From positions 1 through 53,982 of the IMG/VR virus record IMGVR_UViG_3300044766_000063: DNA of 53,982 nucleotides; one strand, given 5' to 3'. Origin of the DNA: a virus. Lineage: Duplodnaviria; Caudoviricetes. A program made the position numbers and the translations under genes. Position 1 is the stretch's first letter. Every line of letters starts with the position of its first letter. Of this stretch, positions 3,903 through 52,409 are shown one piece after another. Below the pieces are notes generated by a model that was given only the letters and a program-made list of their open reading frames with translations, did not search any database and was not told the origin of the DNA.

Positions 3903-3999
3903 TGTTGCGCTTGTTGCGGCGTTTTTTGTTTTGGCTTTTGTGGGTATTTTGCAAACATCATAAGCAACGTATCCCGATCAGCATGACCGGATATACCGA

Positions 4000-5013: not shown

Positions 5014-5023
5014 AAGGCGTTTT

Positions 5024-5940: not shown

Positions 5941-5941
5941 T

Positions 5942-6487: not shown

Positions 6488-6966
6488 TGGCCGTAGGACA
6501 AACACACGTTTCAGCGAAATTCGTCAGCAACATGTCTCTTACCGGATTGTCGGCTTTGTGGGCAACGAATACAGTCAAGATGGGGATTGTCACCAATACT
6601 TCGCCCCCGGCGATTACAGACTCCGATCCTCGCTGGGGTGCGGGTGGATCGCAAAATTACGCGACGAACGAAGTAACGCCAGGTGGTAACTATTCTGCCG
6701 GTGGCGTCTCGCTTACCGGCACAACCTCCACTCTTTCGGGTGCGGTGACTTCTCTGAACGCGGTTTCCCCGATCACGATTGCCGCCAATGCATCAAATCC
6801 CACGGGCGCATTTTGGGCGGTCTTTTATGACTCGACCGATGCCAACAAGCATGTATTCGGTTACATGGATTTGGGTGGGCCTGTGTCGCTTGTTCCCGGT
6901 CTTCAGATCAACATTAACGGTATATCCAGCGGCACACAGCCACTGATGCAAGGCACGGCAACGTAA
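6487..6966 (+). CDS. Putative virion structural protein
   Basis: NEVTPGGNYSAGGVSL motif typical of phage appendage proteins; TAATG coupling. Confidence 0.6.
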   Translation: MAVGQTHVSAKFVSNMSLTGLSALWATNTVKMGIVTNTSPPAITDSDPRWGAGGSQNYATNEVTPGGNYSAGGVSLTGTTSTLSGAVTSLNAVSPITIAANASNPTGAFWAVFYDSTDANKHVFGYMDLGGPVSLVPGLQININGISSGTQPLMQGTAT

Positions 6967-7244
6967 TGGCAACCGGAACCGGAACTGCAACTATCGACTT
7001 CGGTGCAACGCCCGTCTCGGAAAAGCAGTTTACCGTTACTGATGCGCTGATCGCTGGGACAAATTATGTCGAAGCGTTTGTGATGGTCGATTCAACTGCC
7101 GACAACGATGTTGACGCGCACCGTCATGCTGCTGCCAGTTGGCAATTATCTTGTTTGGCCGGGACAGGAAGTTTTACGCTCGACGTTACATGCCTTGTGG
7201 ATTTGTGTACCGGCACTTTCAAGATCAGATACGCCTACGCATAA
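6966..7244 (+). CDS. Putative small virion protein
   Basis: TAATG coupling; GTATIDFG N-terminus. Confidence 0.55.
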   Translation: MATGTGTATIDFGATPVSEKQFTVTDALIAGTNYVEAFVMVDSTADNDVDAHRHAAASWQLSCLAGTGSFTLDVTCLVDLCTGTFKIRYAYA

Positions 7245-7264
7245 AGTTTTTTAACGCAAAGCAA

Positions 7265-7288
7265 AAGCTCGCCTCGGCGGGTTTTTTT
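7265..7288 (+). terminator. Rho-independent terminator
   Basis: GC stem GCTCGC/GCGGGT followed by a T tract. Confidence 0.6.
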
Positions 7289-7311
7289 GTTGCCCACAAT
7301 AAGGAGTTGTC

Positions 7312-30884: not shown

Positions 30885-31325
30885 TTAAAACGGAATATCT
30901 GAATCGAAGTTATCATCAAATTTCTTTGCCGGTTCCGCCGAATCACTGCTTGTATGTGTTGCGGCTTGAGGTGTTTTTTCCAGATCGGTTGTACCCTTAC
31001 TCCCCAGCATCTTCATTTCGTTCACGATGATTTCAGTCGTGTAACGATCCGCGCCGGATTCCTTGTCCTGCCATTTACGTGTCTGGATTTTTCCTTCCAC
31101 GTAAATCTGCGCACCCTTTTTCAAATATTCTCCGGCGATTTCAGCGAGGCGGCGATAGAAGACCAAGTGATGCCATTCCGTCTTTTCCTTTTTTTGGCCG
31201 TCTTTATCCTTCCAGTTTTCGGAAGTCGCAAGCGACACATTGGCTACCGCTTCGCCAGTGGTCATGTAACGAATTTCCGGGTCTTTACCCAAATGGCCCA
31301 CAAGAATCACTTTGTTGACTGACAT
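30885..31325 (-). CDS. ssb: Single-stranded DNA-binding protein
   Basis: [28 protein letters not shown] and C-terminal DIPF. Confidence 0.97.
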
Positions 31326-31436
31326 ATCGTTCCTTTATTTTTTAGGTTGCCTATATCAAACAGGGAAAATACAAATCAATTACTTACTTAAAAATTATCC
31401 GAATTGGGCGGTATTAGATTGTGCTAATGTTGTTTT

Positions 31437-31667
31437 CTATATCTCGTTAGGCATCGTCAAATTCCATGCTGCTTTCCACGCTTCCCATGCGCAAATGGCT
31501 GGCCTGAACACAGGCTCTCCTTCGTGCATACCGCAAGTGTCAAGTGTTGTTGTTCTTGCCCATATCATAAATCTACCTTTGCATTCACCATGCCTATCAA
31601 GCAAGAACTTTTCGTGCCTTTCGTCCGGCTTACATCTGCTTTTCTTTAGTGATTTAGTATGCATCAT
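31437..31667 (-). CDS. Hypothetical protein carried in a putative gene cassette
   Basis: GGAG RBS; AWEAWKAAW; ends in MPNEI across a GTTAGGC core site. Confidence 0.55.
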   Translation of the reverse strand: MMHTKSLKKSRCKPDERHEKFLLDRHGECKGRFMIWARTTTLDTCGMHEGEPVFRPAICAWEAWKAAWNLTMPNEI

Positions 31668-31687
31668 TTACTCTCCGTAGTTAGAAT

Positions 31688-31745
31688 GCCTAACACGGCA
31701 TTCAAGGCGGACTGCTTCGCAGCCGCTTAATTTGAATCGTTAGGC
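31688..31745 (+). mobile_element. Integron attC-like recombination site
   Basis: R'' GCCTAAC, L'' ATTCAAG, central hairpin, L' GCTTAAT, R' GTTAGGC; 58 bp. Confidence 0.75.
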
Positions 31746-31755
31746 ACCACGAACT

Positions 31756-33669
31756 TCATTGCTCCGCCCTAAGTTTCGTAACCTTTTCCTGAAGCAAATT
31801 TTCCAGCGCCGTACTATTGCCGTTACAGAACGTAAAGCCCAGATGATCCCTCATCGCTGCTTGTGTTGGATGTGAAACAAAGCGCGTCATGAGAATACCT
31901 ATATCTCCGTGCTTTATGCTCTCTCTGATCTGTTGGTTGGGCACGTTCGATCCGATAAATTTAAAGTCGAATATGTGACCGAATCGTTTCTGAATGTCAT
32001 TCGTTTGCACGGGAAGCAATCCAACGACGATAACTTTTTTCTTCTGCGGCTTTTCTTCCTTTTCTGGTTGTGGCGTGTTGACAGCGGGCATACTCATACC
32101 TCCTGCCGCCAATTGCTCTCGAACGACCTTTTCAAATGCGGCCATCATCATTGCCTGCATGTCCATTATTGGTGCCTGGACAGGGGCGACTATTTCTGGA
32201 AGCTTTACCGGCTCTGGTTCACGCACTTCCGGTGGACGCCTGCCTATCTCATCCAGCAGGGGAAGAAGCCATGGAATTGGGCTGGGTGTAGGCGGCATGT
32301 TTGCACGTTGTTTATGCGCAGGCATTTCACTATTCGCCTCATTTAAAATCTTTTGCCAGCCCCAGCCCGGATTTACTTTGCGAAGCTGGTAAGTAATTTC
32401 GGCAAAAAATTGTTTATCCTCGTCGCTTAAAAATAGTTTAGCGCCGTGTTGTTTGGATTGTTTTCTCTCTTTAACTTCCGGTGCCCGATCTTCAGCTTTT
32501 GGAAGCGTTCCGCGATGATCAATCACGACTTTGCTCTTGTCAGCCTCTTCCAGTTTGGCAAGGGCACGTTGTAGCCATGGCACGCTGCTTGGATTAATGA
32601 CGCTATCGGCGATCTTATGCCCCTCTGGCATAAAAGCATTAGCTTCCTTCATGCAACGAGTCCATGTGGCTCCACCTTTTCTTAAACCGTAAACAATTTC
32701 GGCAAACTTTTCTTTATCCTTGTCCGTCAGTACGCATTCCCATTTTGACTTAACCTTGGGCGGATTTTCAAGTTGCTCAAGCAAAGGAATGATCCATGTA
32801 ATTTGTTTCACACTATCTATACCCGCGCCGACTTTACGATCATCTGGAAGAAGAGAGTTTGCATGACGAATGGCATGTAGATTACCGGCTTCGGGATTAG
32901 ACTTTTTGAATTCAAAAAAGGCTGTGGCAAAAGCCAGTCTTTCATCGGTACTCAGCGGCTGTCTTTTTAATGGCTTTTCGAGTTGTTCGAGCATAGGCTT
33001 TATCCAGGGTATTTGGTTAATACTATCCAGCGAATCATGTAGTCGCCGATTTTCAGGTAATGCTTTATTGGCTTCACGAAGACAGGCAAGGGGTCTATTG
33101 TCTGAATTATTTTTCTGCGCGGCGTGGAAAGCCTTCGCAAAAATCCACCTCTCTTCTTTGGTTAGGTCAATTCGTTTTAATTCTCCCGGCGCAGATTGTC
33201 TTCTTGATTGAGGCTTTTTGGGTTCGGCTTGAATTTGCTCGATCAGGTCTTTTAGCCATCTAAGATGATTCAAAGCAGAAATACGTTCACCCACTCTTCG
33301 ATCCGCTGGCATTTGATCGTTTGCATAACGAATGGCATTCGCATAACCGCCTTTGGGATTGCTTTGTATGGCAGATAAAACATTTTCTGCAAAAATACGT
33401 TTTTCAACATCCCGCAACATTAAGTTCTTTGGTTGTGATGAATCAACATTGCCGCCCATTTTTTCAAGTAGAGGCTCTAACCACGTCACTTTGCTTGGAT
33501 GGTCGATTTTCTCACTTAGTCGTCTTTTAGTTGGTAGAGCGGCACGCGCCTGCGCAAAAACAGTTTTCCAGGGCAAATCTGGATTGGCTTTTTTGGCTTT
33601 ATAAATTGCCGTGGCAAATATCATTCTTTCCTCATCATTAAGAACGGTTGGTGCAGATTTCGTTGCCAT
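31756..33669 (-). CDS. Protein with six tandem helical repeats and a DUF2325-like C-terminal domain
   Basis: Repeat LxxxE/DxxxFA...AxxxL/MP...WL/I six times; C-term KVIVVGL...ILMTRFVSH. Confidence 0.7.
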   Translation of the reverse strand: MATKSAPTVLNDEERMIFATAIYKAKKANPDLPWKTVFAQARAALPTKRRLSEKIDHPSKVTWLEPLLEKMGGNVDSSQPKNLMLRDVEKRIFAENVLSAIQSNPKGGYANAIRYANDQMPADRRVGERISALNHLRWLKDLIEQIQAEPKKPQSRRQSAPGELKRIDLTKEERWIFAKAFHAAQKNNSDNRPLACLREANKALPENRRLHDSLDSINQIPWIKPMLEQLEKPLKRQPLSTDERLAFATAFFEFKKSNPEAGNLHAIRHANSLLPDDRKVGAGIDSVKQITWIIPLLEQLENPPKVKSKWECVLTDKDKEKFAEIVYGLRKGGATWTRCMKEANAFMPEGHKIADSVINPSSVPWLQRALAKLEEADKSKVVIDHRGTLPKAEDRAPEVKERKQSKQHGAKLFLSDEDKQFFAEITYQLRKVNPGWGWQKILNEANSEMPAHKQRANMPPTPSPIPWLLPLLDEIGRRPPEVREPEPVKLPEIVAPVQAPIMDMQAMMMAAFEKVVREQLAAGGMSMPAVNTPQPEKEEKPQKKKVIVVGLLPVQTNDIQKRFGHIFDFKFIGSNVPNQQIRESIKHGDIGILMTRFVSHPTQAAMRDHLGFTFCNGNSTALENLLQEKVTKLRAEQ

Positions 33670-33756: not shown

Positions 33757-34371
33757 TTAGCCAATAGACTTTAAAATCTCCTGTACCAACTCTAAAAACT
33801 CCTGTCTGCGCTCGTTTAGCCTTATAATCTCGTTCTTCACCTGATCCTTGTAGACCCTGTAGGTGATCAATTGTTTGTGGGCAGGGAAGTCTGAACAGTA
33901 ACTTGCAAAGTCCACCCAGTCCCTTCCTGTGCAGTCCAAATGCCCAACGAGTTGCCACTTATAAACCGGATCAAAACTTCCCCGGCGCAGGGTTGCGTAG
34001 TGTGTTTTGGCGATGACTGATTTGACCTCCAAAACGCCTTCATCGCCAACCAGCCCGTCCGGTGAGTCGCCATAATCGTTCCAGTCAAAAAATCCGCCAT
34101 TGGTTACTGTTGCAAAGTGTTCTTCTTCGTACAACATCCTGGCAACAGGCTCTTGTTCGTGGCCTCGCTCGGTGTGTTCGTTGCTGAAGCTGAATTCAGC
34201 CCTCTTACCTGTTGCCAGTTCCAGCGCAAGTTGCAGCGCATAGTCTTTTGCTGGATCGCCAAAAGCTTTTCCATCGTTTGCCATGAAGCAACCAAATCTT
34301 GAGGCTGTAGCTTTACCCAGTCGCAGGTCAAACCAACCCTCGGAATTTTGTTCGACATCATGGAATTTCAC
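33757..34371 (-). CDS. YqaJ / lambda-exonuclease family protein
   Basis: QNSEGWFDLRLGKATAS, RGHEQEP, SPDGLV..LEVK and YKWQ motifs. Confidence 0.9.
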   Translation of the reverse strand: MKFHDVEQNSEGWFDLRLGKATASRFGCFMANDGKAFGDPAKDYALQLALELATGKRAEFSFSNEHTERGHEQEPVARMLYEEEHFATVTNGGFFDWNDYGDSPDGLVGDEGVLEVKSVIAKTHYATLRRGSFDPVYKWQLVGHLDCTGRDWVDFASYCSDFPAHKQLITYRVYKDQVKNEIIRLNERRQEFLELVQEILKSIG

Positions 34372-36143: not shown

Positions 36144-36377
36144 ATGGATAACCAAGTCGAAATTCTCGATCTTTCTGTGGATGAACGGCACACCCTGGCC
36201 CGCAAGGCCGGTATCAAGCCGATTTATCTGTGGCAGTGCGGTGCAGGGATCAGAACGCCGCGTTTACGCATCGCCGAAAAACTCATGAAGCACGAACCAC
36301 GGTTGACCGTCACCAGTTTGATGGCTCCCTACCATCGCCTTCTGGCAAAGCAGGCAAAACTGAAAAAAACAAAGTAA
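36144..36377 (+). CDS. Cro-like HTH regulator
   Basis: LARKAGIKPIYLWQCGAGIRTP HTH. Confidence 0.8.
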   Translation: MDNQVEILDLSVDERHTLARKAGIKPIYLWQCGAGIRTPRLRIAEKLMKHEPRLTVTSLMAPYHRLLAKQAKLKKTK

Positions 36378-36415
36378 GTCTGAAGTCACACCTTTCAAGG
36401 AAAGGGCGTACCGGA

Positions 36416-36994
36416 ATGACCGACACACAAAATCTTGCTCCCAATGTTCAGGCGTTCCTGGATATTGCTTCCAAACAGTACGGCAAAATTAAAGCTGCCG
36501 ATTTCAAACAGGATATGTATTGCCAAGTGATTGAAGGGCAAATGCAGTCGCCCATCGAACACTTGTTTCTCATTGCCTGTCATGCAATGTGTGCTTTGCA
36601 ATGTGTAGAAATCAATCCTGATCCGCTTATTAATGATGATTATGAACTCGATAGCGCAAAGGGTTTTTATATCCATCAACAGGCAATGATCAGTAAATAT
36701 CGCGTTGATTTTTTAATTTTCCAAATCGGATGGGCACCATCCAAAATGTTTACGCCGGTAATTGTGGAGCTTGATGGTCATGCATTTCATGACAAAAACA
36801 AAGAACAGCGCGCATACGAAAAAGCCAGAGATAGAGCGTTGGTAAGGGATGGTTACAAAGTCTTGCATTTTACTGGCAGTGAAGTAAATGCCGATCCATT
36901 CAAGGTTGCTTTTGAAGCACTTTCGCTGGCGGGTTTGTTCGTTGGTGCTGACAACGAAGAATACGATCCGAAAAATCCATTGGGAGTCGAATAA
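36416..36994 (+). CDS. DUF559 / Vsr-like PD-(D/E)XK endonuclease-domain protein
   Basis: SPIE, YRVDF, IVELDGHAFH, RDRAL..GYKVLHFTGSE. Confidence 0.8.
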   Translation: MTDTQNLAPNVQAFLDIASKQYGKIKAADFKQDMYCQVIEGQMQSPIEHLFLIACHAMCALQCVEINPDPLINDDYELDSAKGFYIHQQAMISKYRVDFLIFQIGWAPSKMFTPVIVELDGHAFHDKNKEQRAYEKARDRALVRDGYKVLHFTGSEVNADPFKVAFEALSLAGLFVGADNEEYDPKNPLGVE

Positions 36995-38831: not shown

Positions 38832-38862
38832 ATGAGTTGGCTCTTTTCTCAAAGGTTTTTAA

Positions 38863-39276
38863 ATGAACACTTGTCCTATTTGCTTTCAAGAATTCAAACC
38901 GAAGCGGAAAGAGCAGCGGTTTTGCTCAATGAAATGCGGCCACAAGAACAACGGTCATGGGCGGCTTGGTCAGAAAACAGGAGTGCAGTCGAAGCATTAC
39001 AAAACTCGAATAACGAAGGATGGCTACTTGCGGATGTATTCGGGAAAACATCCATACGCCAATGGGCGAAAGGAAATTGCTGTCCATATTATGGTAATGG
39101 AAATGCACATCGGCAGGGCGATAAACACGGACGAGTGTGTTCATCACATCAACGGAATCAAGATGGACAACCGACTGGAGAATTTGGAATTGATGTTGCA
39201 CAGTCAACACTCACGAGAACACAACATCAAATTGGCGACAACGAGGGGGCGAGATGCATGGGGCAGGTTTGCGTGA
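38863..39276 (+). CDS. HNH homing endonuclease inserted at the methyltransferase 5' end
   Basis: CPIC..FCSMKC, HIMVME..IGR and VHHINGIKMDNRLENL. Confidence 0.85.
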   Translation: MNTCPICFQEFKPKRKEQRFCSMKCGHKNNGHGRLGQKTGVQSKHYKTRITKDGYLRMYSGKHPYANGRKEIAVHIMVMEMHIGRAINTDECVHHINGIKMDNRLENLELMLHSQHSREHNIKLATTRGRDAWGRFA

Positions 39277-39997
39277 GCTTGCGCTGTTTGCAGGCGCTGG
39301 TGGTGGATTGCTTGCAAGCAAAATGCTTGGCTGGCGAACCGTTTGCGCAGTTGAACGTGATGCCTACTGCGCACAAGTTTTGGCACAAAGACAAAACGAT
39401 GGATCACTTGAACCTTTCCCAATTTGGTCTGACGTTGAAAGTTTTGACGGAAGACCGTGGCGCGGAATTGTTGATGTCATATCTGGCGGGTTTCCCTGTC
39501 AGGACATTAGTGCCCAAGGGGGGGGAGTTGGACTCAGTGGAGAGCGTTCAGGATTGTGGGCACAAATGGCCCGAATCATTGGCGAAGTACGACCGCGCTA
39601 CGCATTTGTGGAAAACAGCCCCTTGCTCTCCCGCAGAGGACTCGGGATCGTCCTTAGTGATCTGGCCGAAATGGGGTTCGATGCGGAGTGGGGTGTGTTA
39701 TCAGCAGCAGATGTTGGTGCGCCGCACCAAAGAAAACGTATCTGGATTGTTGCCTACTCCCATGGCGTCAGACTGGAAAGGCGGAACAGTGTCGATCAGA
39801 AGAGATACGGGAAAACAGAGATTGGATCAGTTTCGGGATTGGTGCAAATGTATGCATGGCCTGACGTATCCAATCCCGGATCATTCGGAAGTTGTCATGG
39901 GGTGGCCTATCGGATGGAGCGACTTAAAGCCATTGGAAACGGGCAAGTTCCAGTTTGTGCAGCAACCGCTTTCAGACTTTTGCACGAAAGAATCTGA
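39254..39997 (+). CDS. DNA cytosine-5 methyltransferase, large polypeptide
   Basis: Motif I LFAGAGG, IV GFPCQD, VI ENS, VIII QRKRIW, X RLKAIGN; motif IX not in this frame; start may be TTG at 39269. Confidence 0.9.
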   Translation: MHGAGLRELALFAGAGGGLLASKMLGWRTVCAVERDAYCAQVLAQRQNDGSLEPFPIWSDVESFDGRPWRGIVDVISGGFPCQDISAQGGGVGLSGERSGLWAQMARIIGEVRPRYAFVENSPLLSRRGLGIVLSDLAEMGFDAEWGVLSAADVGAPHQRKRIWIVAYSHGVRLERRNSVDQKRYGKTEIGSVSGLVQMYAWPDVSNPGSFGSCHGVAYRMERLKAIGNGQVPVCAATAFRLLHERI

Positions 39998-40037
39998 ACA
40001 TGTAAAGGAAATGGGTCAAAGTAGTTTTTGCTTCTGA
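39273..40037 (+). CDS. Overlapping-frame polypeptide carrying C5-MTase motif IX
   Basis: +1 frame fully open; LPTPMASDWKG and EVVMGWPIGWSD; GTG overlaps the HNH stop. Confidence 0.6.
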   Translation: MSLRCLQALVVDCLQAKCLAGEPFAQLNVMPTAHKFWHKDKTMDHLNLSQFGLTLKVLTEDRGAELLMSYLAGFPVRTLVPKGGELDSVESVQDCGHKWPESLAKYDRATHLWKTAPCSPAEDSGSSLVIWPKWGSMRSGVCYQQQMLVRRTKENVSGLLPTPMASDWKGGTVSIRRDTGKQRLDQFRDWCKCMHGLTYPIPDHSEVVMGWPIGWSDLKPLETGKFQFVQQPLSDFCTKESEHVKEMGQSSFCF

Positions 40038-40178: not shown

Positions 40179-40481
40179 GTGAGCAAAATAACTGAAAGCG
40201 CCCGTGGTGAAGATTGCCAAGTACGCATTCCCTACGTGTGCAACTTCAATCCTGAAACGACCGTCTGGGCGCACGCCAATGGGTTGGCGGCAGGAAAAGC
40301 AAGGGGATTGAAATCGCCCGATCCGCTGGGTGCGTATGCTTGTTCAAAATGTCATGACGTTATTGATGGTCGTGTTCGTGTTCCTGGTTTGAGTTATGGC
40401 GAAGTGCAATTGGCATTCCATGAGGGGCATCAAAGATCGTTTATCAAGCTGGTTGAAAAAGGATTGGTGAATTGGAAATGA
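40179..40481 (+). CDS. DUF1364 (YbcO-like) protein
   Basis: ARGEDCQVRIP.VCN.NPETTV.AH and AYACSKCHD.IDGR. Confidence 0.85.
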   Translation: MSKITESARGEDCQVRIPYVCNFNPETTVWAHANGLAAGKARGLKSPDPLGAYACSKCHDVIDGRVRVPGLSYGEVQLAFHEGHQRSFIKLVEKGLVNWK

Positions 40482-40885
40482 ATGTTCATTTTTCAAGCCA
40501 AACAGATTTGTGGGCAACACCACAAGATTTCTTTAATAAGTTGAATGAAGAATTCAATTTTCAACTGGATGTATGAGCACGACATGAAAATGCAAAATGC
40601 AAAAAATATTTCACCAAAGAACAGGATGGATTGTCGCAGGAATGGAAAGGTGTTTGCTGGATGAATCCGCCCTATGGGCGCGAGATTGGTAAATGGATGC
40701 AGAAAGCTTATGAAGCGGCTCAGGGGGGGGCAACAGTCGTTTGTCTTGTTCCTGCAAGAACCGATACGCGGTGGTGGCATGAGTACGCAATCAAACATGA
40801 GGTCAGATTTATTCGGGGCCGTTTGAAATTTAATGAGGGAAAAGGAAATGCACCGTTTCCTTCCGCTGTTGTGGTGATGAAATGA
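40478..40885 (+). pseudogene. Phage N6-adenine methyltransferase (Dam-like) with in-frame TGA at codon 33
   Basis: MNVHFSS..DLWATPQDFF...LDV*A...WMNPPYG...LVPARTDT..RLKF; TGA at 40574-40576. Confidence 0.8.
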
Positions 40886-41092
40886 ATGTCCGACTGCAAA
40901 CAATGCCGACACAGGAAATGGAAGCCGACAAAAGCAACTGGCGGCAAATGGGCGGTCTGTATTTGTGAGGCGCGCAATTTATGTTTTGGCACAGAACGGG
41001 ATGTATGGATGAACAAGGGCGACAAGAAGTTTGGGATAGTGGCGCAACCGACAACGTGCGGGCAGTTTGAAAGGAGAGGTCAAAATGTATAA
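40886..41092 (+). CDS. Small Cys-rich protein
   Basis: CKQCRH motif; in the operon. Confidence 0.5.
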   Translation: MSDCKQCRHRKWKPTKATGGKWAVCICEARNLCFGTERDVWMNKGDKKFGIVAQPTTCGQFERRGQNV

Positions 41093-41333
41093 ATGCAAAT
41101 TGTGCGGCAAAGTATTTTCGACTCGCTTTGTTATTGAGCAGCATCATTGTCCAAGGCGAATTGCAACTCAAGAAACACAAACAAATAACGATCCTTTGTT
41201 CCTGGCAGAAATGGCCGCGATTGATTTGATGTGTTACGAGCCTGCCTCTGATAGTTCATCCAGTTCGTCCAGCGATTCTTTTTCTGGTGGAGGCGGTGAT
41301 TCTGGTGGCGGTGGTGCCAGTTCGGATTTTTGA
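41085..41333 (+). CDS. Small protein with Zn-finger-like N-terminus and Ser/Gly tail
   Basis: CKLC..HHC; FSGGGGDSGGGGASSDF; AGGAG RBS. Confidence 0.6.
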   Translation: MYKCKLCGKVFSTRFVIEQHHCPRRIATQETQTNNDPLFLAEMAAIDLMCYEPASDSSSSSSSDSFSGGGGDSGGGGASSDF

Positions 41334-41665
41334 TGAGTAACGCTGAAGAACTTCTTGCGTTTCACATCAAAGCCACAAAACTCTGGGAGCCAGTGCGTGA
41401 ATACAGATTCGATTCTGTACGCAAGTGGAGATTTGATTTTGCATGGCCGAATATTTTGCTTGCAGCAGAAGTTGAAGGTGGCATTTGGACTGGTGGGCGA
41501 CATACGCGAGGTAAAGGTTTTTTGGATGATTGTGAAAAATACAATCAAGCCGTAATGGCGGGATGGAAAGTTTTACGCTTCCCAGTTGAAGTAATTGAAT
41601 CAGGCGAAGCTTTGCAGGTTATCGAAAAAGCCTTAAAACAAAATGAGGTAAAACATGGGCCATGA
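41330..41665 (+). CDS. PD-(D/E)XK endonuclease (DUF559-like)
   Basis: EYRF..RKWRFDFAWP...EVEGG..GRHTRG...EKYN..GWKVLRF. Confidence 0.8.
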   Translation: MMSNAEELLAFHIKATKLWEPVREYRFDSVRKWRFDFAWPNILLAAEVEGGIWTGGRHTRGKGFLDDCEKYNQAVMAGWKVLRFPVEVIESGEALQVIEKALKQNEVKHGP

Positions 41666-42152
41666 ACGTTTGATCAGATGCATTCCCGCGCGTTCTTTGG
41701 GATGGGATGAAACTCAGGAAGTTTCGATTGATCGAATAACCGCTATCGGGTTTGCATCTAGGTACAACGAAATAGGCGAGGCCATGTTGCGGGTGGATGC
41801 CCTCGATGTCAGTGCATTACATAAAGTCATTTTGCTGGTGATCCGGCGACTGAATCATCATCACAAAATTGACCGTGGCTTTGCCAGGAAGATCGCTTTT
41901 GCTACGTTGCATGAGTATATGCGGCCCAACTGCATTTATTGCGGCGGCAAAGGTGAGGAACACAGAAAAGGCCGGGTTGTTACGGTCTGTTCGTATTGTG
42001 AAGGCTCCGGCCTGCACAGGTATAGTGATAAGGATCGCAAGGCGCTCGTTGGGGGTGGTTTTAACACTCGGGCCTATGAAGATACCCTGACCTATGTTCG
42101 GGACGCTGTACGGGCCATTGTGGTCAATTCTGACAGGCGTTTGGGTGGTTGA
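41655..42152 (+). CDS. Antiterminator Q-like protein
   Basis: CIYCGGKG and CSYCEGSG Zn motifs; at the end of the nin-like region. Confidence 0.6.
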   Translation: MGHERLIRCIPARSLGWDETQEVSIDRITAIGFASRYNEIGEAMLRVDALDVSALHKVILLVIRRLNHHHKIDRGFARKIAFATLHEYMRPNCIYCGGKGEEHRKGRVVTVCSYCEGSGLHRYSDKDRKALVGGGFNTRAYEDTLTYVRDAVRAIVVNSDRRLGG

Positions 42153-42176
42153 CTTTCGTATGCGTCATGCTAAACT
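42149..42176 (+). promoter_or_regulatory. Promoter containing a remote repressor operator
   Basis: TTGACT-16-TAAACT with extended -10 TG; TATGCGTCATGCTAA at 42159-42173. Confidence 0.6.
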
Positions 42177-42401
42177 TTGGGTATGTACTGCTTACCTGTA
42201 GATGATCTATGTCACCTTGAATTTGATCATAAAGTCATGATCGAGGAAAAGGCGCGTGATAATTATATTTATGACAATGCTTTTGAACTGGGTACGTTCA
42301 ATGGCCGCAGATACGTTTACACCTGGTTTGACAAGCAACCTGTGATCCTGATCGATAACACAGGCCAGCTATCTGAAACGCCGGATATATTGGGAGAGTA
42401 A
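42177..42401 (+). CDS. Hypothetical protein
   Basis: ORF right after the promoter; start uncertain. Confidence 0.45.
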   Translation: MGMYCLPVDDLCHLEFDHKVMIEEKARDNYIYDNAFELGTFNGRRYVYTWFDKQPVILIDNTGQLSETPDILGE

Positions 42402-42403
42402 TT

Positions 42404-42640
42404 ATGACAACTCCAGAACAAAAAGCACTTAATGAGAAGTTGAGGAAAGAAGCGATGGACGCGAAATTTGCCCGCGAGACAAAGCAAACTCCCAACGGGA
42501 AAGAGCAAACCGAGTATCACCCAAAAGAACACAAAGTAATCACCCAACCTGACGATACAACTACCATTTCCAAAGAATTCGGCGGTCTGTTGGGAAAGGC
42601 CGCAGAAGCATTGAGAAATCGCAGGCGTGAACCTGATTAA
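42404..42640 (+). CDS. Hypothetical protein
   Basis: GGAG RBS. Confidence 0.55.
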   Translation: MTTPEQKALNEKLRKEAMDAKFARETKQTPNGKEQTEYHPKEHKVITQPDDTTTISKEFGGLLGKAAEALRNRRREPD

Positions 42641-43125
42641 TGCGTCATCCCTTCGCGCGGCAGGAAGGTGCTGAAACGGCCTTCCAGTTCTTTCGTCAGT
42701 TCAAACTGTAGATCGTCAAACCCGCGCGCATTGTCTCCCAAAGATTTGATCCGGCTATAACCAAACCAGAGTCCTTCCCGCGTTTCCAGCGTGAGAAATA
42801 CCGCGTCAATCCGGTCTGGATGATCGGAGAGTCCTGTGTACGACTTTAAATATTCATCGTTTTCTACTCTGGATTCTTTGCGCTCAACCATCCAAGCCTC
42901 GGAAATCATCATGACGTAATCCGGCCTTGTAATTTTGCAGATTGCTTTAACCATTGCTGCCGCCCGATCCTTGTCTCCCATGTGTACGGGAATAGGAACA
43001 ACGCCTTCCCCGAACTTCCCCAGAAAAGCCATTGCCTGAAGATCGCCTCCTTCAGATAAAAATCCGCGCGCCGCAGAAACGATCATTTCAATGTGAGCGT
43101 GATACTTCTCCGGGATCATCTTCAT
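42637..43125 (-). CDS. Conserved hypothetical protein
   Basis: SEAWM...HPDRIDAV; AAGGAG RBS; ATGA coupling. Confidence 0.6.
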   Translation of the reverse strand: MKMIPEKYHAHIEMIVSAARGFLSEGGDLQAMAFLGKFGEGVVPIPVHMGDKDRAAAMVKAICKITRPDYVMMISEAWMVERKESRVENDEYLKSYTGLSDHPDRIDAVFLTLETREGLWFGYSRIKSLGDNARGFDDLQFELTKELEGRFSTFLPREGMTH

Positions 43126-43358
43126 TCGCCCAACTCCTTGACCTTGATTTTGAACAACTCCCAAAACGCCGGATGCATACGCCTGTGATTGACCGTATCC
43201 TCTTCCGCTTCCCATTGCTGCCACTTCCCGCAGGTGGTGTGTACCAGTTCGGCGGCGGCAGTTTGGGATAGACCTGCATCCAGGCGCAGGGCAATGACTT
43301 CTTGCGGTTTGGGATTACGCGAAGAACCCCGACCGCTTCGATTGGGGTGATTTGCCAT
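43122..43358 (-). CDS. XRE-family HTH protein
   Basis: MANHPNRS...RLDAGLSQTAAAELV...WQQWE...RMHPAFWELF. Confidence 0.75.
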   Translation of the reverse strand: MANHPNRSGRGSSRNPKPQEVIALRLDAGLSQTAAAELVHTTCGKWQQWEAEEDTVNHRRMHPAFWELFKIKVKELGE

Positions 43359-43561
43359 TAGTAAACCTCAACCGAAGACGGGCAGTTGCCGACGAATGCG
43401 CGCCAGAATCTGTTGCCCGCATACATGTATTCACAGTTTGCCACGTATTGGCCGGTAACAGATTGACCGTAACGCACCTGTCCTGTCCAGAATGCAGTTG
43501 CAGCAGACGCTGTACCAGAAATAGCCATGCCAACTACCAGTGCCAAGATAAGCTTTTTCAT
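43358..43561 (-). CDS. Small secreted protein
   Basis: Signal peptide MKKLILALVVGMAISGTASA; two Cys in the mature part. Confidence 0.65.
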   Translation of the reverse strand: MKKLILALVVGMAISGTASAATAFWTGQVRYGQSVTGQYVANCEYMYAGNRFWRAFVGNCPSSVEVY

Positions 43562-43809
43562 TTCATTTCTCCTTTCAAAATTTCATTTACTACATCATGA
43601 ATTGCATCCTTTGGATGCTTACCTAACAAAATGCTTGCGCGGATCGCTTCTTTAATTTCTTCATCTGCGACTACTGTTAGACTTAGCTTTCGCGCGACTG
43701 ACCAACTCATTCTTTTCGCGCGATTACGTGCTACAGCGATTCTTCGAGCGGCTATTCCTGCGAATTCTTCTAGGCTGGTATCATCCAGCACACCACTAAA
43801 TTCAATCAT
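43558..43809 (-). CDS. Hypothetical protein
   Basis: AAGGAG RBS preceded by the repeated leader motif. Confidence 0.55.
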   Translation of the reverse strand: MIEFSGVLDDTSLEEFAGIAARRIAVARNRAKRMSWSVARKLSLTVVADEEIKEAIRASILLGKHPKDAIHDVVNEILKGEMK

Positions 43810-43873
43810 TTCTTACTCCTTGTGGCCCACTGAAACCCAGAGGCGCGGTTGCCTGTAAATCAGGCGGAAACTA

Positions 43874-44296
43874 TTAACCTTCTAGTGCATCCGAATAGGC
43901 TCGTGCTACTTCTTCCAGCGCAAACCAGGCGAGAGCGTTTGCAATCTGGCTATCCTCTTTTGATTTGGGGCCGTACAGGGTTTGAGCAACTTCGTCTGTT
44001 GAATAGTTATTATCCAAACAGCGAAATTTTTTGATCATTTCGATGACGCCCATTCCGGCATCTTCTGCCATAGTGGTCGCGTATTGGCGGATCAAGTCGC
44101 GGTGGCTGGTGAAAAACTTCACCGTATCGACGTAATAGATAAAGCCTGAATTACAGCCGGTATCGGCACCATGATTTACAACATCAAGGGCGGATTCTTT
44201 GAATTGCTCCCAGTCGCCCGATTGACGTACTACTGCGCGTATAAGACCTTCTGGGATATTGGACTTGCTGATTAGCTCTTTGATGGTTTTCATCAT
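43874..44296 (-). CDS. Conserved phage protein
   Basis: HG..G..SGFIYY.DT..FF and NALAWFALEEVA. Confidence 0.7.
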   Translation of the reverse strand: MMKTIKELISKSNIPEGLIRAVVRQSGDWEQFKESALDVVNHGADTGCNSGFIYYVDTVKFFTSHRDLIRQYATTMAEDAGMGVIEMIKKFRCLDNNYSTDEVAQTLYGPKSKEDSQIANALAWFALEEVARAYSDALEG

Positions 44297-44352
44297 ATTC
44301 CTTCGGCCCCCAAGACCCGAGGCGTGGTGCCAGCAACATGCCGACAATTGGA

Positions 44353-44430
44353 AGTTTACTACGTTGTTTGTTTATGTCAATACTTTATCTAAAAAATATG
44401 CTTGACGCGATATATTCGTTTTGATATAAA
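44353..44430. promoter_or_regulatory. Divergent sigma70 promoter pair
   Basis: Minus strand TTGACA-16-TAAACT; plus strand TTGACG-17-TATAAA. Confidence 0.6.
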
Positions 44431-44459
44431 GTCGTATCGACCAATTAAAGTCTTACCGC

Positions 44460-44756
44460 ATGGTGAGACGCATAACGATAAGGCCGCCCATGATTGAACG
44501 GGCGGCTTTTTCTTTTTTTCTGGAGAATCCCATGAGATACCCGCGCGGAGTGCCTTCACATGGCAGGCTCGGTTGCTGCCCCGATGACTGGGACAAAATC
44601 CCCGACATTACCGGATCGTATGAGCTTGACGCTGTGATCAAGCAAAGCAAGAACAAAGACGTACCGGCCAGGTTGCAGGTCTATTGCCAGCGGGTGAACT
44701 CTTACGGCCCCTTGACCGCGTATGACGGCTACAACGGCTATTCTGGCGATAATTAG
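44460..44756 (+). CDS. Hypothetical protein
   Basis: Downstream of the rightward promoter; internal GGAG-ATG start near 44532 is likely. Confidence 0.4.
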   Translation: MVRRITIRPPMIERAAFSFFLENPMRYPRGVPSHGRLGCCPDDWDKIPDITGSYELDAVIKQSKNKDVPARLQVYCQRVNSYGPLTAYDGYNGYSGDN

Positions 44757-44950
44757 ACGCCTTCTTTTTGGCGCGCGTGTGCGTCGATACGTTGACGGGC
44801 GCGAAGTCCCGAATTTCAGGAGTGACACCATGGCAAAGCCAAAAGAAAAAGTACCAATGGGCAAAGGTAAGGGCAAGGGCAAAGGGCCGTTTGGCCCGAA
44901 GTGCTGAACACTACGCGCGTATCCAGCATACGCGCGTATAGGAGATAACG

Positions 44951-45145
44951 ATGCCCTGGTCACTTTCAAGCGGGATAAAGCACACGAAGAAGGCCGACAC
45001 TTCGGCCAAAAAGAAACAATGGGCCAGCACGGCCAATGCTGTACTTGAAAAATCCGGCGACGAAGGCAAGGCCGTTCGGGTAGCAAATGCCGCAGTTAAA
45101 AAACATCCCAGCAAAAAGAAAAAATTACCCCAGTCGCGCGTATAG
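44951..45145 (+). CDS. ChaB-like basic protein
   Basis: MPW...QWASTANAVL..GDEGKAVRVANAAV; AGGAG RBS. Confidence 0.6.
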   Translation: MPWSLSSGIKHTKKADTSAKKKQWASTANAVLEKSGDEGKAVRVANAAVKKHPSKKKKLPQSRV

Positions 45146-45372
45146 GCCGTCCTCGCGCGTATAGGGGTAGGGATTGCCATATTTAAATCGGGTAGCACAT
45201 GCCGCTATTAAATGAAAACCGCGCCCCTGATTGAAGGCAAACTCTCCAAGCCTGCCGCGCGCCTGTGCAAGTCCTGTCCGCCAGTTGACTGGATCAAGTG
45301 TTACCAGACTAACGGCAAGTGGAAGCAGTGCGACAAGCAAGCCGCAAAACAGCCTTAGTCGCGCGTATAGGG

Positions 45373-45579
45373 CTATTCAGCCGCTATGCTGGCAACAAAA
45401 AAACAAATACCGGCAAGGATCAAAAAACCCATAGCCCCCAGTATCTGGAAACTGATAATGCTGGCAAGCATGGCAAAGACTGAAGCAATACCCCCAAGCC
45501 ATCCGGCAAGAATCCAGAACCAACGCTGAAAGGCTAGATAAGCGGCAACGATTAAAGTAATTACAATTGTTATTTCCAT
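45373..45579 (-). CDS. Small membrane protein
   Basis: Three hydrophobic segments; AAGGA RBS. Confidence 0.6.
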   Translation of the reverse strand: MEITIVITLIVAAYLAFQRWFWILAGWLGGIASVFAMLASIISFQILGAMGFLILAGICFFVASIAAE

Positions 45580-45670
45580 GATGATCCTTTAGCCCTTCAG
45601 TAACGCCGGGGCGCGCGTATAAACCGGCAAAATTGCCACAATGCGCCCTTAGTATCAAAGGCGCATAATG

Positions 45671-46069
45671 TCAGGCTTGCACGGCCTTGGCGATTGCGGC
45701 GCGGGCAGCTTCAAGCCTTTGCGCTTGCGTCTTCCCGAGTGTGGTTGTATAGCTGAATGCCTCAAGAATGCGAGTTACACCTTGCAAGGCTTCCAGCAAT
45801 TCAGGTGCGGCGGCAATTAAGCGCGCGTTAGCCTCAAGGTTTGAATGGCCTGTTGAATTTATTAGCGCCCCCATATCAAAAATATGGGTTCCGTCAGTTT
45901 CAATAATATTCATAAAGCTGGAATTCTCGCGCGAATAGAGCCACGGTCCAGGCGTATGTTTGGTGTTCACGTTGGTAATTCCGGCAATCGCCACCGCCTC
46001 ACCGCGCACAATTGCGCCGGTTACGTGATGACGTAATGCGTTCAATGGTGCGTTGTTTTTCGTGTTCAT
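45671..46069 (-). CDS. Conserved phage protein
   Basis: HTPGPW...ANARLIAAAPELLEAL. Confidence 0.75.
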   Translation of the reverse strand: MNTKNNAPLNALRHHVTGAIVRGEAVAIAGITNVNTKHTPGPWLYSRENSSFMNIIETDGTHIFDMGALINSTGHSNLEANARLIAAAPELLEALQGVTRILEAFSYTTTLGKTQAQRLEAARAAIAKAVQA

Positions 46070-46102
46070 GGTTTTATCCTTTCGTATGCGCGTATAGGCG
46101 CT

Positions 46103-46384
46103 TTAGTTATTGCGCAAGCGTGCATGAATGGCTAAAGCCTCATCCCCGTATTTGGCGCAGTATTGCGTATAGTGCGCAATCAATGCTTGGCACGCTGTAC
46201 GCTCATCGTCAGACGATGCAGGGCGGGTTTTTTCGCGGTAATAGCTAACGCACCCTTCGGAATGCTGTTCTTCGCGCGTATAGACACTTAGCGCATAGCC
46301 GTTATACTTAACTGGGTTGCGGTAAAATATTGCAGGCTTGCCGGTTAGCTTTTCGATCCTGATAACTGCATGTAAAGTTTTCAT
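46103..46384 (-). CDS. Hypothetical protein
   Basis: ATGA coupling; QHSE...YY..TRPA motif. Confidence 0.6.
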   Translation of the reverse strand: MKTLHAVIRIEKLTGKPAIFYRNPVKYNGYALSVYTREEQHSEGCVSYYREKTRPASSDDERTACQALIAHYTQYCAKYGDEALAIHARLRNN

Positions 46385-46512
46385 GCTTGCGCCCCTTTCA
46401 TTGCATTAAGCCATAACGTAACCTGCGCCGGACTAACCCCGTACTCCTCAGCCTTAGCGACTGCAAAAATAACGGACTCTTTCGCTGTTTCAATAAATTC
46501 CTTTTGAGACAT
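46381..46512 (-). CDS. Small hypothetical protein (43 aa)
   Basis: MSQKEFIETAKE...; preceded by the leader motif and AAGGGG. Confidence 0.5.
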   Translation of the reverse strand: MSQKEFIETAKESVIFAVAKAEEYGVSPAQVTLWLNAMKGAQA

Positions 46513-46602
46513 AGCAACCCCTTAGCCCCTGTTTACCCGAGGCGCGGTTAGAGTGTTTAGCCACTCCCTGCGCCCCCTTATGGGAAGAGGCGCAAGGCGG
46601 GA

Positions 46603-47148
46603 CTAAACGCCGCAAGCCATAGCATCCTGGAAACGATGTTCTACGGCATACGCGCGGTAGGCTTGCTCTGTTAGGTCTTGCGCGGTCTCTTCGATGTAGT
46701 CGTCATCTTCGGAACCGATACCCCAAAGCGCGAAGGTGTAGTCAATAGGCGCGTCTTCGTTGTCGGTTATGTCGGTAACGACTACGCCGCACCAATGCCA
46801 ATTATCATTAGCCCATCCGCTTAAATATTCAAAATCATGGCGGACTGACTCGGCGGTAATTTCACCCTTTGTTGGGGTGCGGCCTAGTTTGGCGGTAAGT
46901 GTGGCGAGACGATCCGCACCTAACCCCCAGCCTTCAGCCTTTGCCTTTTTCATAGTTGCGGCATGATCATAAAAACGTTTGGAATGACGGTCTGAGCTTA
47001 ACAACCATTCTCCCGCGTGTTTGTCGCGTGTAACCCAGTCGCTTACTATGCCGTGTCCGTCATGTTCATTCCATGGTGCGCCCATGTCTTGATCGTCTGA
47101 CGTGTCAATGCGGTAAGTACGGCTATTTAGTTCAATAGTGTTTTGCAT
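46603..47148 (-). CDS. Conserved acidic phage protein
   Basis: PWNEHDGHG.VSDW and W.WCGVVVT...LWGI; AAGGA RBS. Confidence 0.7.
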   Translation of the reverse strand: MQNTIELNSRTYRIDTSDDQDMGAPWNEHDGHGIVSDWVTRDKHAGEWLLSSDRHSKRFYDHAATMKKAKAEGWGLGADRLATLTAKLGRTPTKGEITAESVRHDFEYLSGWANDNWHWCGVVVTDITDNEDAPIDYTFALWGIGSEDDDYIEETAQDLTEQAYRAYAVEHRFQDAMACGV

Positions 47149-47176
47149 GGTAATCCTTTCGTTATTTAACGGTTGT

Positions 47177-47392
47177 TTAACGGTCTTCTAACGTGTATTC
47201 GTCCGGTACAGTCTCGGGGCTTGTGAATGGCTCTAGGCAATCATCCACACAACCTACGCCGCTATCAGTAAAATCATCGGGGGCTTCTGCTGCAAGCTCT
47301 GAAGCCGTCAAACACTCGGGGCAATCGGTAGGCAGTGCGAAGACCTGCAAGGCCAAAACCAGGCACACGGCAAGGGAGAGGGCGCGGATCAT
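47177..47392 (-). CDS. Small secreted acidic protein
   Basis: Signal-like N-terminus; CPEC and CVDDC. Confidence 0.5.
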   Translation of the reverse strand: MIRALSLAVCLVLALQVFALPTDCPECLTASELAAEAPDDFTDSGVGCVDDCLEPFTSPETVPDEYTLEDR

Positions 47393-49502: not shown

Positions 49503-52409
49503 ATGAGACCTGAAGACATAGCGCGACTGATTAGAGAGGAGGCGAGGCGAGGCGCACAGCCTAAAGACCTGGGCATTGAAGGCGAAAAAGGGCAGCTACA
49601 ATCCAGCCCTTCAAAACCGGAAAAGCAAAATGAAATTGCTGATGCTGAGATTCCCCCCCCCTCAGCATCTCCCCATCCGCAACCTGAAATTTTTTCCGCC
49701 CAAAATTTTTCAGATCGTAAAGATTCGTCTCCTTACGCTGACACTCCAAAATTTTTCCGCCAATTTTTGGAGCCAGATAACGGTAGTCTAACCAAAGCCG
49801 TACCGTTACTTAACGCAACTCTGTGCCAGCAGTACGACTCATGCCTTGATGTGCCTTTCCTGGACATCTTCAAGTGGTGGGAAGAGAAGACCGACCGGTA
49901 CAAGAACCTGCCTCTCGTCAGAGCGTTGTGCATGTACGACAGGTTCTTCTTGCTCGTTCAGATGTTCGGTCGTCAGGACATGCTTCATGAATGGCTTTAT
50001 GAGCGTTGTAGGGAAGTGGAGAGAGAGCCGGATAACTGTCTCGATCTGTGGAGTCGATTTCACTATAAAGCGGTGGACTTGCGTGAAGTTGTTCCGACTC
50101 CTTCTGGATGGAAGCGTCATGGAGATTTAGAGCCGGAAGATTATGTTTTTGGCCCGGACGGAAAACCGAAGAAAGTTCTTGCTCGGACAGAAGTGTTTAC
50201 GGATGCTGATTGTTGGGTTGTGAAGTTTGATAAAGGGTATGAAGTTGTCGTTTCAGCCGAACATCTTTGGACGGTGGACATCGCTTCAAAGGTAAGAGTT
50301 GGTGATGGTCGTGAAGGCAGGAAGACTGTAACGATCAACACCAGAGAACTTGCTGCTGAAGTCGCTCATTCCAAAGCAGTTGAGAGCAGAGTCTTACCTT
50401 CCGTTCCGGTAGCGAAAGCACTTGAGTATTCCGCATCAAGTCTTCCTGTCCCTCCCTATGTGTTGGGTGTGTGGTTGGGGGATGGAAATAAGGCTGACGG
50501 ACGTATCTCGAAAGATTTTCAGGATGAAATCATCTTGGAGAAAATCCGCGCCTGTGGTTTTGCAGTTGAACGTAAAGCTGGATTGAGCGTACAAATCTTC
50601 GGCCTTCTGCCGAAGTTGAAGACGTTGGGAGTCTGGAATGATAAGCACGTTCCAGTGAGTTATCTCACTGCCTCAATTGCGGATCGCTGGGAGCTTTTGA
50701 GTGGTTTGATGGATACAGATGGTCACTGTGATATTCGCGGTACAGCGACTTTCGTAAACAAGAGCGCAGCTCTCGCTGGGAATGTTTTTGAACTGGCCGT
50801 ATCGTTAGGTTTAAAACCTTCGCTACGGCATGTGGATGGAACTTACAACGACCAACCTTATCCGTATTATCAGGTCTCTCTTCAGTCCAGACATGATAAG
50901 CAAGTCTTCAGTCTTCCCAGAAAACAGGAACGCTCTACCGATGGGAAGGTGACTCGCTCTGGTCGTCATGCAATAGTCTCTGTAGAACCGGCTGATACGA
51001 TTCCTGTGTCTTGTATTCAAGTGGAAGGTGGAGAGTACCTGATCGGGGAACACTGCATCCCGACTCACAACTCCACCATCATTACTTACGCTGGGGTAAT
51101 TCAGGAGATTTTGAAAGACCCGGAGCTGACGGTTGGAATCTTTAGCCATGTGAAACCCATCGCTAAAGGTTTCTTGAGCCAGATCAAGCGGGAGCTTGAG
51201 TCTAATGAGCAGTTGAAGAAGCTGTTCCCTGATGTTCTATACGACAATCCTGAACGTCAGAGTCCGTCATGGTCGGTGGATAACGGGCTGATCGTGAAGA
51301 GACGGGGTAACCCGAAAGAACCTACGATTTCGGCCTGGGGTCTTGTTGACGGTCAACCTGTCTCAGCTCACTACAGACTGAGAGTCTATGATGACGTGGT
51401 GACTCAGGCATCTGTCTCGACTCCCGAGCAGGTCTCGAAAACGACTGAGGCGTTTGAACAATCCGCGAACTTGGGAACTGAGGACGGTCGGCGTTGGATG
51501 GTGGGTACGCGGTGGTCTTATGCGGATACTTACGCCGAGATCATGAAGAAGAAGATGGTGAAAGTCCGTCTTTATCCTGCCACGGACGATGGGACGTTTA
51601 CCGGGAACCCGGTATTGTGGTCGCCCGAGTTTAACGAGCAGATGAAACTTGAACAGGGAGAGGCGACTTATGCAACGCAATGTCTTCAGAACCCACTTGC
51701 AGGCAACCAGAAGATGTTCGATGTGGCCGATCTTCAGACTTACGAAGTCAGACCTGAAACGCTTGCAGTTTACATCCTCATTGACCCGGCGAGATCGAAA
51801 AAGACGGATTCTGACAACACGGCTATGGTTGTTGTGGGTCTGGACTACGCAGCGAACAAATACATCCTTGATGGGTTTAACCACAAGATGGACTTGCAAG
51901 AACGCTGGCAAAATACAGCCCGTCTCTATGAACGATGGAAACGAGCTACAGGGGTACAAGCTTTATATGTCGGATACGAAAGTTTCGCTGCGCAAGCCGA
52001 CTTGGACTATTTCCACGAACAGCAGAACCTGACGAAGATTCACTTCAACATAGTTGAGTTGGCTTGGCCCCGAGAAGGAGGTGGTTCAAAGATGGATCGT
52101 GTACAAAGACTTGGCCCGGATATGCGAAGTCACAAAATCTTCCTGCCTTATCCAACCGACGAAAAAAACCTGACTGCGGGTCAGAGAAAAATGACCCAGG
52201 GTTATGACTACCGTATTGCTCACAAGATCAAACGGAAAGATGAGAACAATGAGGCTTACGATTTGGCAGAACAACTCAAAGAACAGATATTTTATTTTCC
52301 ATTTGGAGGGAAGAAGGATTTGGTGGATGCGCTCTCCCGGATTTATGACATGGAACCCAGGGCACCAAGTTATCGTGAGCAGCGTTATTCAGAACCGGAG
52401 TTTGTATGA
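49503..52409 (+). CDS. Terminase large subunit (intein-containing)
   Basis: Walker A SRFHYK|ST, Walker B VYDDVV, VGTRW, nuclease ILIDPA and KDLVDALS; true start uncertain. Confidence 0.9.
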   Translation: MRPEDIARLIREEARRGAQPKDLGIEGEKGQLQSSPSKPEKQNEIADAEIPPPSASPHPQPEIFSAQNFSDRKDSSPYADTPKFFRQFLEPDNGSLTKAVPLLNATLCQQYDSCLDVPFLDIFKWWEEKTDRYKNLPLVRALCMYDRFFLLVQMFGRQDMLHEWLYERCREVEREPDNCLDLWSRFHYKAVDLREVVPTPSGWKRHGDLEPEDYVFGPDGKPKKVLARTEVFTDADCWVVKFDKGYEVVVSAEHLWTVDIASKVRVGDGREGRKTVTINTRELAAEVAHSKAVESRVLPSVPVAKALEYSASSLPVPPYVLGVWLGDGNKADGRISKDFQDEIILEKIRACGFAVERKAGLSVQIFGLLPKLKTLGVWNDKHVPVSYLTASIADRWELLSGLMDTDGHCDIRGTATFVNKSAALAGNVFELAVSLGLKPSLRHVDGTYNDQPYPYYQVSLQSRHDKQVFSLPRKQERSTDGKVTRSGRHAIVSVEPADTIPVSCIQVEGGEYLIGEHCIPTHNSTIITYAGVIQEILKDPELTVGIFSHVKPIAKGFLSQIKRELESNEQLKKLFPDVLYDNPERQSPSWSVDNGLIVKRRGNPKEPTISAWGLVDGQPVSAHYRLRVYDDVVTQASVSTPEQVSKTTEAFEQSANLGTEDGRRWMVGTRWSYADTYAEIMKKKMVKVRLYPATDDGTFTGNPVLWSPEFNEQMKLEQGEATYATQCLQNPLAGNQKMFDVADLQTYEVRPETLAVYILIDPARSKKTDSDNTAMVVVGLDYAANKYILDGFNHKMDLQERWQNTARLYERWKRATGVQALYVGYESFAAQADLDYFHEQQNLTKIHFNIVELAWPREGGGSKMDRVQRLGPDMRSHKIFLPYPTDEKNLTAGQRKMTQGYDYRIAHKIKRKDENNEAYDLAEQLKEQIFYFPFGGKKDLVDALSRIYDMEPRAPSYREQRYSEPEFV
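50070..51071 (+). mobile_element. Class 3 intein with LAGLIDADG endonuclease (334 aa)
   Basis: Ala1 start, EHLW, VSCIQV, PTHN|S; LGVWLGDG and LSGLMDTDG. Confidence 0.9.

Follow-up and report, generated by a model that had tools for sequence, protein, structure and literature searches.

Can a phage operon hold an integron-type gene cassette, and in which direction is the gene of such a cassette read? This question is raised by a short segment of the window (the whole stretch of 53,982 bases analysed here), in which the initial annotation had described a 58-bp attC-like site at 31688-31745 and a second core site 293 bp upstream, with TCGTTAGGCA repeated at 31444 and 31737. Both copies of the repeat are exactly there (31444-31453 and 31737-31746), and the window harbours no further exact copy. 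The heptamer GTTAGGC/GCCTAAC was found three times, at 31446-52 (+), 31688-94 (−) and 31739-45 (+), with a spacing of 293 bp between the two copies on the + strand. The upstream GTTAGGC is complementary to the R″ box GCCTAAC at 31688-94, as had been described. Shuffled sequences gave an expected count of 4.2 per whole window, and what is unusual about the heptamer is that all three copies lie within 300 bp, not how many there are.

The initial annotation had proposed to examine the site with an attC covariance model. The model used for this, R1, was made in this analysis and is not the attC model of IntegronFinder. Its sources were 80 bacterial loci encoding IntI1 or chromosomal relatives with 73-77% identity, in which hairpins beside intI were chosen that have complementary R boxes and a bulged L box. 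In total, we found 55 distinct hairpin sites beside IntI1-like genes, of which 47, on the strand directed away from intI, had top polarity; the remaining eight were one ambiguous site and seven with bottom polarity, most of which lay far from intI and were not convincing. The R1 alignment contains 32 of the 47 top-polarity sites, after removal of 14 sites longer than 92 nt and one doubtful site at ~5 kb from intI, and the model has 16 base pairs. Polarity was fixed by the aadA1 attC of plasmid R100, where the gene is annotated and the extra C of the L box is located in the 5′ arm on the coding strand. Searched against the 54-kb window with filters off, R1 gave 31688-31745 on the + strand as its single significant match (38.9 bits, E 8.7e-9); on the − strand the same site scored 13.8 bits, and the next unrelated match in the window had an E-value of 2.8.

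The site has all the parts of an attC. The R″ box (31688-94) is perfectly complementary to the R′ box GTTAGGC (31739-45). In the R1 alignment a first spacer of five unpaired nucleotides (31695-99) is followed by L″ (ATT[C]AAG, 31700-06), which pairs with L′ (CTTAAT, 31726-31); the stem between them (CGG/CCG and CTGC/GCAG, with a TTC loop) occupies 31708-25, and the second spacer 31732-38. On the + strand, C31703, G31707 and A31711 are without partner, and these correspond to the unpaired G16, C20 and T24 of the bottom strand when it is numbered from the R″ end. The extrahelical bases reported for VCR2 (G16/T20/T24) and attC-oxa2 (G16/A20/T24) in the part of Nivina 2016 used here are located at the same positions 16, 20 and 24. 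When compared to the aadA1 attC (Tn21/R100; one of the integron 59-base elements), the phage site aligns position by position and arm for arm. It has in common with class-1-type attC sites the RYYYAAC/GTTRRRY boxes, the 5-nt unpaired spacer, the short terminal stem-loop, the extra base after the third pair of the L box and further extrahelical bases. Folded as DNA, the 58 nt of the + strand form an imperfect hairpin of −17.4 kcal/mol (z −4.6), and none of 200 shuffles was equally stable. The free-energy fold favours a shifted register (ATTCAA/TTGAAT) over the model pairing, and a hairpin is formed either way. A search of 31300-31900 against Rfam returned no family at E≤10, and a terminator and promoter scan found no consensus and no T-run at the site. 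The R1 score, the strand preference and the extrahelical bases at 16, 20 and 24 identify 31688-31745 as a genuine integron-type attC with its top strand on the + strand.

Two G|TT crossover points, 31446|31447 and 31739|31740, delimit a cassette-like unit of 293 bp (31447-31739, +) with one conserved ORF and one attC between them, which is the content expected of a cassette. In a canonical cassette, the attC top strand is also the coding strand of the gene, and the attC comes last; here, the + strand is the attC top strand and the − strand encodes the gene. The left core repeat (31444-31453, +; G|TT at 31446|31447) is an R′-type box. It was ruled out as a full but weak attC, since to the left of 31444-53 there is no hairpin and no R1 match at E≤10. 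Read on the coding strand it is GCCTAA|CGAG..TAG, from which the gene takes its final codons and stop; in the full attC sites of the related arrays described below, GCCTAAC-GAGTAG stands at the equivalent position. Because it has 10 nt in common with the R′ box, and CGAG..TAG like the spacers of these arrays, 31444-53 is probably the stump of a lost second attC. The initial annotation had invoked a random secondary site of the GTT type, and this reading gives way to the stump. As the left site is now without a hairpin, classic attC x attC excision is impossible in the present state.

The absence of intI, already stated by the initial annotation, holds for the whole 53,982-bp record, in which neither TIGR02249 (integron integrase) nor PF00589 (tyrosine recombinase) had a match. 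The window therefore does not harbour a complete integron, i.e. intI, attI and promoter beside cassettes. It also does not harbour a CALIN, which has at least two attC sites without integrase, as there is one R1 match and the left site is a bare R′ box. With a single attC beside one gene, and neither an integrase nor a further att site in the vicinity, it corresponds to a SALIN as defined in the available part of the preprint by Loot (10.1101/2022.09.11.507474). In contrast to class-1-type integrons, the phage site has no intI, attI or Pc nearby, is solitary, lies in a phage and has its gene on the bottom strand.

The gene itself (31437-31667, −; attC bottom strand) encodes a protein of 76 aa. 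We take it to be a real gene because 13 relatives were found at E≤1e-3 in a representative library, in which the W/P/R/A core is invariant (alignment A1). They make up a conserved family of small phage proteins with the pattern W..LD..G..EP.FRPAICAWEAWKAAW. As had been noted, the ORF is inverted relative to attC and its stop lies just past the core site: the stop codon (31437-39) is 7 nt beyond the left core site, the last codons (M-P-N-E-I) span this site, and the last codons and the stop fall outside the 293-bp unit. No Pfam family matched the protein, and its AlphaFold model (pLDDT 74.4) had no PDB match at E≤0.001, with three matches all at E>7. In genome_contigs no relative of the gene was found. 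Between attC and the start codon lies a leader (31668-31687, −) with the ribosome-binding motif GGAGAG at 31676-31671.

On the other side of attC, the gene for a 637-aa protein (31756-33669, −) has its stop 10 nt before the site. This protein contains six internal repeats of ~85 aa with the motif ..F A..........NP.......ANA.LP..R.......S...WL.PLLE.., and ends in a distinct C-terminal domain. Neither Pfam nor PHROG gave a match for it, and in viral_contigs no relative was found. The downstream neighbour of the cassette encodes SSB (30885-31325, −; PF00436, E 2e-39). Together with a YqaJ-like exonuclease (33757-34371) and a serine integrase (large serine recombinase), these genes form one leftward operon in the order YqaJ exonuclease, 637-aa protein, cassette, SSB and serine integrase. 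The virion and terminase genes of the window are located elsewhere. The cassette is in the early recombination/replication operon of a probably temperate phage. A host search was uninformative, as the terminase of the window had only a 25% match, in a Dehalococcoidales MAG. In a phage collection the relatives matched only the ssb part, with at most 20% of the query, and none of 243 records covered 80%.

Homologues of the 76-aa gene were found at 12 loci, in one metagenome scan and two viral-contig scans. Five of these (L003, L010, L012, L016 and L019) are free of hairpins and, as negative loci, gave no R1 attC, and there the gene is part of ordinary, often overlapping, strings of phage genes. 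At the other seven (L009, L011, L013, L014, L015, L017 and L018), 24 R1 sites flank the homologues, 23 of them on the strand opposite to the gene. In these reversed arrays a gene begins a few bases past an attC, with its own Shine-Dalgarno motif, and ends in the R′ box and spacer of the next attC, so that the crossover point falls within its last codons. Several array products (L009 1-2706; L011, L013-L015) have a C-terminal P-N-E from GCC TAA|C GAG TAG; unrelated array proteins share this ending because their 3′ ends are translated through the R′ box and spacer. One reversed-array cassette (L013 1587-2027, +) encodes a phage-type Dam methyltransferase (PF05869, E 8e-30).

Gene and attC were also compared separately. 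The DNA of the window resembles that of L009, L010 and L011 between the start codon and 31439-31445, a little past the left core site. The L009 homologue is 82% identical to the window gene at the DNA level and has different attC sites on both sides, and a 57-nt, 100% identical copy of the window attC is found in L009 at ~1.5 kb from this homologue, beside another gene. In L004 the window attC, the leader and ATGATG recur with 88.5% identity over 96 nt. A near-identical copy of the attC is part of an array in G001 (IMGVR_UViG_3300022208_000278, 58.5 kb; L005-L007), where only 96 nt are similar to the window. The attC subtype pattern of the window had no match in genome_contigs. G001 gave 32 R1 matches at E<1e-3 and 44 at E≤1. 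They form blocks at 221-5909, 40396-47315, 51323-52363 and 54062-56218, in two opposite orientations around the replication genes, and roughly a quarter of the record is cassette array. Judged by its genes, which encode a terminase, a head-tail adaptor, DnaB, a replication initiator and a methyltransferase, G001 is a phage. No tyrosine recombinase or IntI was found in it.

Furthermore, we looked at the boundaries of the cassette in other metagenomes. A sequencing-run index listed one probable source run and 17 runs with part of the window DNA, and the contigs of four of the latter (X2-X5; three from sediment and one from freshwater) were compared to the window at 85% likeness, a comparison that shows presence only. 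In X2, the likeness of record 3 to the window is ~89% over 31005-31450, beyond which its sequence is unrelated. In X3, record 11 aligns over 31738-31840, and the 3′ arm of another attC stands before this match. These two boundary alleles break at most 2-4 nt from G|TT; related DNA thus differs in content at either G|TT point. Alleles with an alternative cassette, which the initial annotation had asked for, are thus present at both boundaries. For one record in X3 and X4, only 31686-31746 is in common with the window, and record 10 of X3 matches 31608-31758 with four differences. Similarity also ends at the R″ end of attC (31686/31687) and just after the start codon (31655), neither of which is a normal cutting place of IntI. 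The excision joint 31446-31740 was not found in the X2-X5 contigs, and contigs drop rare variants.

Through strand selectivity, integrons take up all cassette genes in the orientation that lets the integron promoter transcribe them. We compared the polarity of cassette genes in viral and bacterial arrays by taking the longest ORF per strand between neighbouring attC sites, which is a crude measure. In control arrays beside IntI1-like genes, 36 of 42 intervals had the longest ORF on the top strand and six on the bottom strand, with Shine-Dalgarno motifs in eight (top) and four (bottom) cases. In G001 and the loci of the gene family, the top strand was found in nine and the bottom strand in 34 of 43 intervals (Shine-Dalgarno motifs 1 top and 17 bottom; Fisher test against the control, p 1e-9). 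The viral sample was wider. It was drawn with a narrow attC pattern that gave 98 stretches of viral_contigs, of which 80 were examined, and 'viral' refers to the IMG/VR label. At E≤0.001, R1 found 351 sites in these 80 loci. The best 150 R1 matches gave 69 unique intervals, with 28 top, 40 bottom and one tie (Shine-Dalgarno motifs 6 top and 30 bottom; p 3e-6 against the control). A cruder site finder, applied to all 80 viral loci, gave 143 intervals, 46 top and 97 bottom. The viral attC sites score as high on R1 as the sites beside IntI1-like genes, and a polarity call from the L box agreed with the R1 strand at all 143 callable sites (seven were not callable). The shift in polarity is large despite the crude ORF measure and the pattern-chosen sample. 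Reversed cassette polarity is apparently a wider, undescribed trait of phage-borne arrays.

Two observations on single arrays were made in the course of this comparison. In L167 (IMGVR_UViG_2834908352_000001, 385-7989), unlike most of the sample, all 10 intervals have the canonical top-strand polarity, and this array may belong to a chromosomal integron of a bacterium that was included in a provirus call. In L081 (Rhodocyclaceae MAG), one well-formed attC of 55 nt, at 3005-3060 from intI, is inverted in an otherwise canonical bacterial array.

Phage attC clusters (Qi 2023) and integrase-less single attC sites (Loot 2023) have been published already, and the new aspect is the orientation of the gene. 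According to the available part of Qi 2023 (PMC9892861), 10,705 phage genomes were screened and integron components were found in 21 phages, with 17 CALINs among these, and five of six phage attC sites tested recombined with IntI1. At least two attC sites were required in that screen, and for this reason a single site like that of the window would not be listed. The phage CALINs resemble the present arrays in that attC sites and cassettes occur without integrase and methyltransferases are among the cassettes (here Dam in L013). The part of that article used here makes no mention of gene polarity relative to attC, a point on which its supplementary tables may bear, and among the partial texts covered by our literature search no paper on backward cassettes in phages was found. 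The available part of the Loot preprint describes, for bacterial genomes, that IntI inserts and excises cassettes at non-att GWT sites. In both the SALINs and the window, one gene accompanies a single attC, an integrase is lacking, the junction is a GTT and a neighbouring promoter drives expression. In contrast to SALINs at such attG sites, the left junction of the window has 10 nt of the R′ box and not only GWT, a match that suggests a decayed attC rather than an attG site.

The identity and polarity of the attC, the boundaries of the cassette and the different content at these boundaries in related DNA are established. The gene family and the same attC also recur in multi-cassette arrays of other phage and metagenome contigs, with the same reversed polarity. 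The attC and the R′-box stump delimit a one-gene cassette of a reversed kind: on the coding strand the attC precedes the gene, the coding strand is the one that is folded and cut by integron integrases, and the end of the gene crosses the crossover point, so that its last codons and stop come from the recipient site. We consider it fairly probable that an integron integrase which the host provides in trans delivered this cassette and can also exchange it. Such an integrase would act on the bottom strand in its folded form, here the coding strand, with the cut at GCCTAA|C. The left attC would later have lost its hairpin, so that a single attC remains, and the gene would be expressed by read-through of the phage operon with its own ribosome-binding site. 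Tentatively, one may go further and propose that phages hold a pool of backward cassettes of their own, with attC first, a bottom-strand gene and a translated R′ box and spacer, set apart from bacterial integrons by polarity; the cassette of the window would then be a member of this pool that stayed behind in a recombination operon.

Several observations count against a role of host IntI: neither the window nor G001 encodes IntI or another tyrosine recombinase, the X2-X5 contigs show no excision, some breakpoints lie at the R″ end and past the start codon, attC and gene do not co-vary between relatives, the left core site has no hairpin, and the orientation is the one avoided by bacterial integrons. 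Mosaic phages have short conserved linker sequences at junctions where neighbouring genes differ between relatives. The main rival explanation, and a live one although we regard it as rather unlikely, is that the attC is an attC by descent that now serves as a mere linker, and that homologous or microhomology recombination of the phage swaps the flanking genes across the conserved attC ends without any integron integrase. The breakpoints away from G|TT and the missing co-variation of gene and attC fit exchange by the phage's own recombination system. Contig similarity is lost at either side of the hairpin (31686/31687 and 31746/31747) and not only at G|TT, identical attC sites are found beside unrelated genes and related genes beside unrelated attC sites, and the cassette lies within the recombination module, between the genes for the YqaJ-like exonuclease and SSB. 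However, the junction differs from the linkers of mosaic phages in that it is an attC with structure and strand asymmetry, to which an integron model gives a score. The strand features that matter to an integrase, namely the extra L″ base and the unpaired spacers, have been kept, and the L-box polarity agrees with R1 at every callable viral site. Moreover, compensatory changes were seen in six of the nine pairs of the L-box helix among 135 distinct viral sites, in an alignment that was fitted to the model, and the two boundary alleles that break next to G|TT also argue against a mere linker.

That the hairpins are substrates of a recombinase other than IntI, acting in trans with opposite polarity, would explain the backward genes and agrees with reversed polarity being the rule in these arrays. 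We hold it to be improbable, as no tyrosine recombinase of any kind was found in the window or G001, the sites score like IntI1-linked sites on a model trained only on those, and published phage attC sites work with IntI1 (Qi 2023, PMC9892861, as far as that text was available). An ordinary intergenic hairpin that resembles attC by chance, such as a terminator, an RNA-stability element or a processing site, could be suspected from the position between two genes of one operon and from the statement, in the same part of Qi 2023, that attC sites are weak terminators. The R1 score with its strand asymmetry, the empty terminator scan without a T-run, the lack of an Rfam family and the identical copies inside multi-attC arrays bring this explanation close to refuted. 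Delivery and exchange as a reversed cassette by a host integrase is the reading that we prefer over all three.

If many cassettes of opposite polarity are indeed carried in phage operons that are transcribed from the other side, phages would use attC exchange on their own terms, and the cassette pools of phages and bacteria would be partly insulated from each other. The 76-aa family, an operon gene at five loci and an attC-bounded cassette at seven, suggests that phage operons may make new cassettes, and the same small gene with and without attC is material on the open question of cassette origin. Taken alone, the window is a modest gain: a clear single-attC example in a temperate soil phage, from a class that is published but rare.

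Some minor observations concern other genes of the window. Within ssb, 158 nt are missing from contigs of X3 and X4, in which 31129 is followed by 31288; this points to relatives with a shorter SSB gene or a diverged middle part. A gene at 36230-36994 (+) encodes a DUF559 / restriction-endonuclease-like domain (E 4e-9), and a methyltransferase-like gene is located nearby at 38832-40037.
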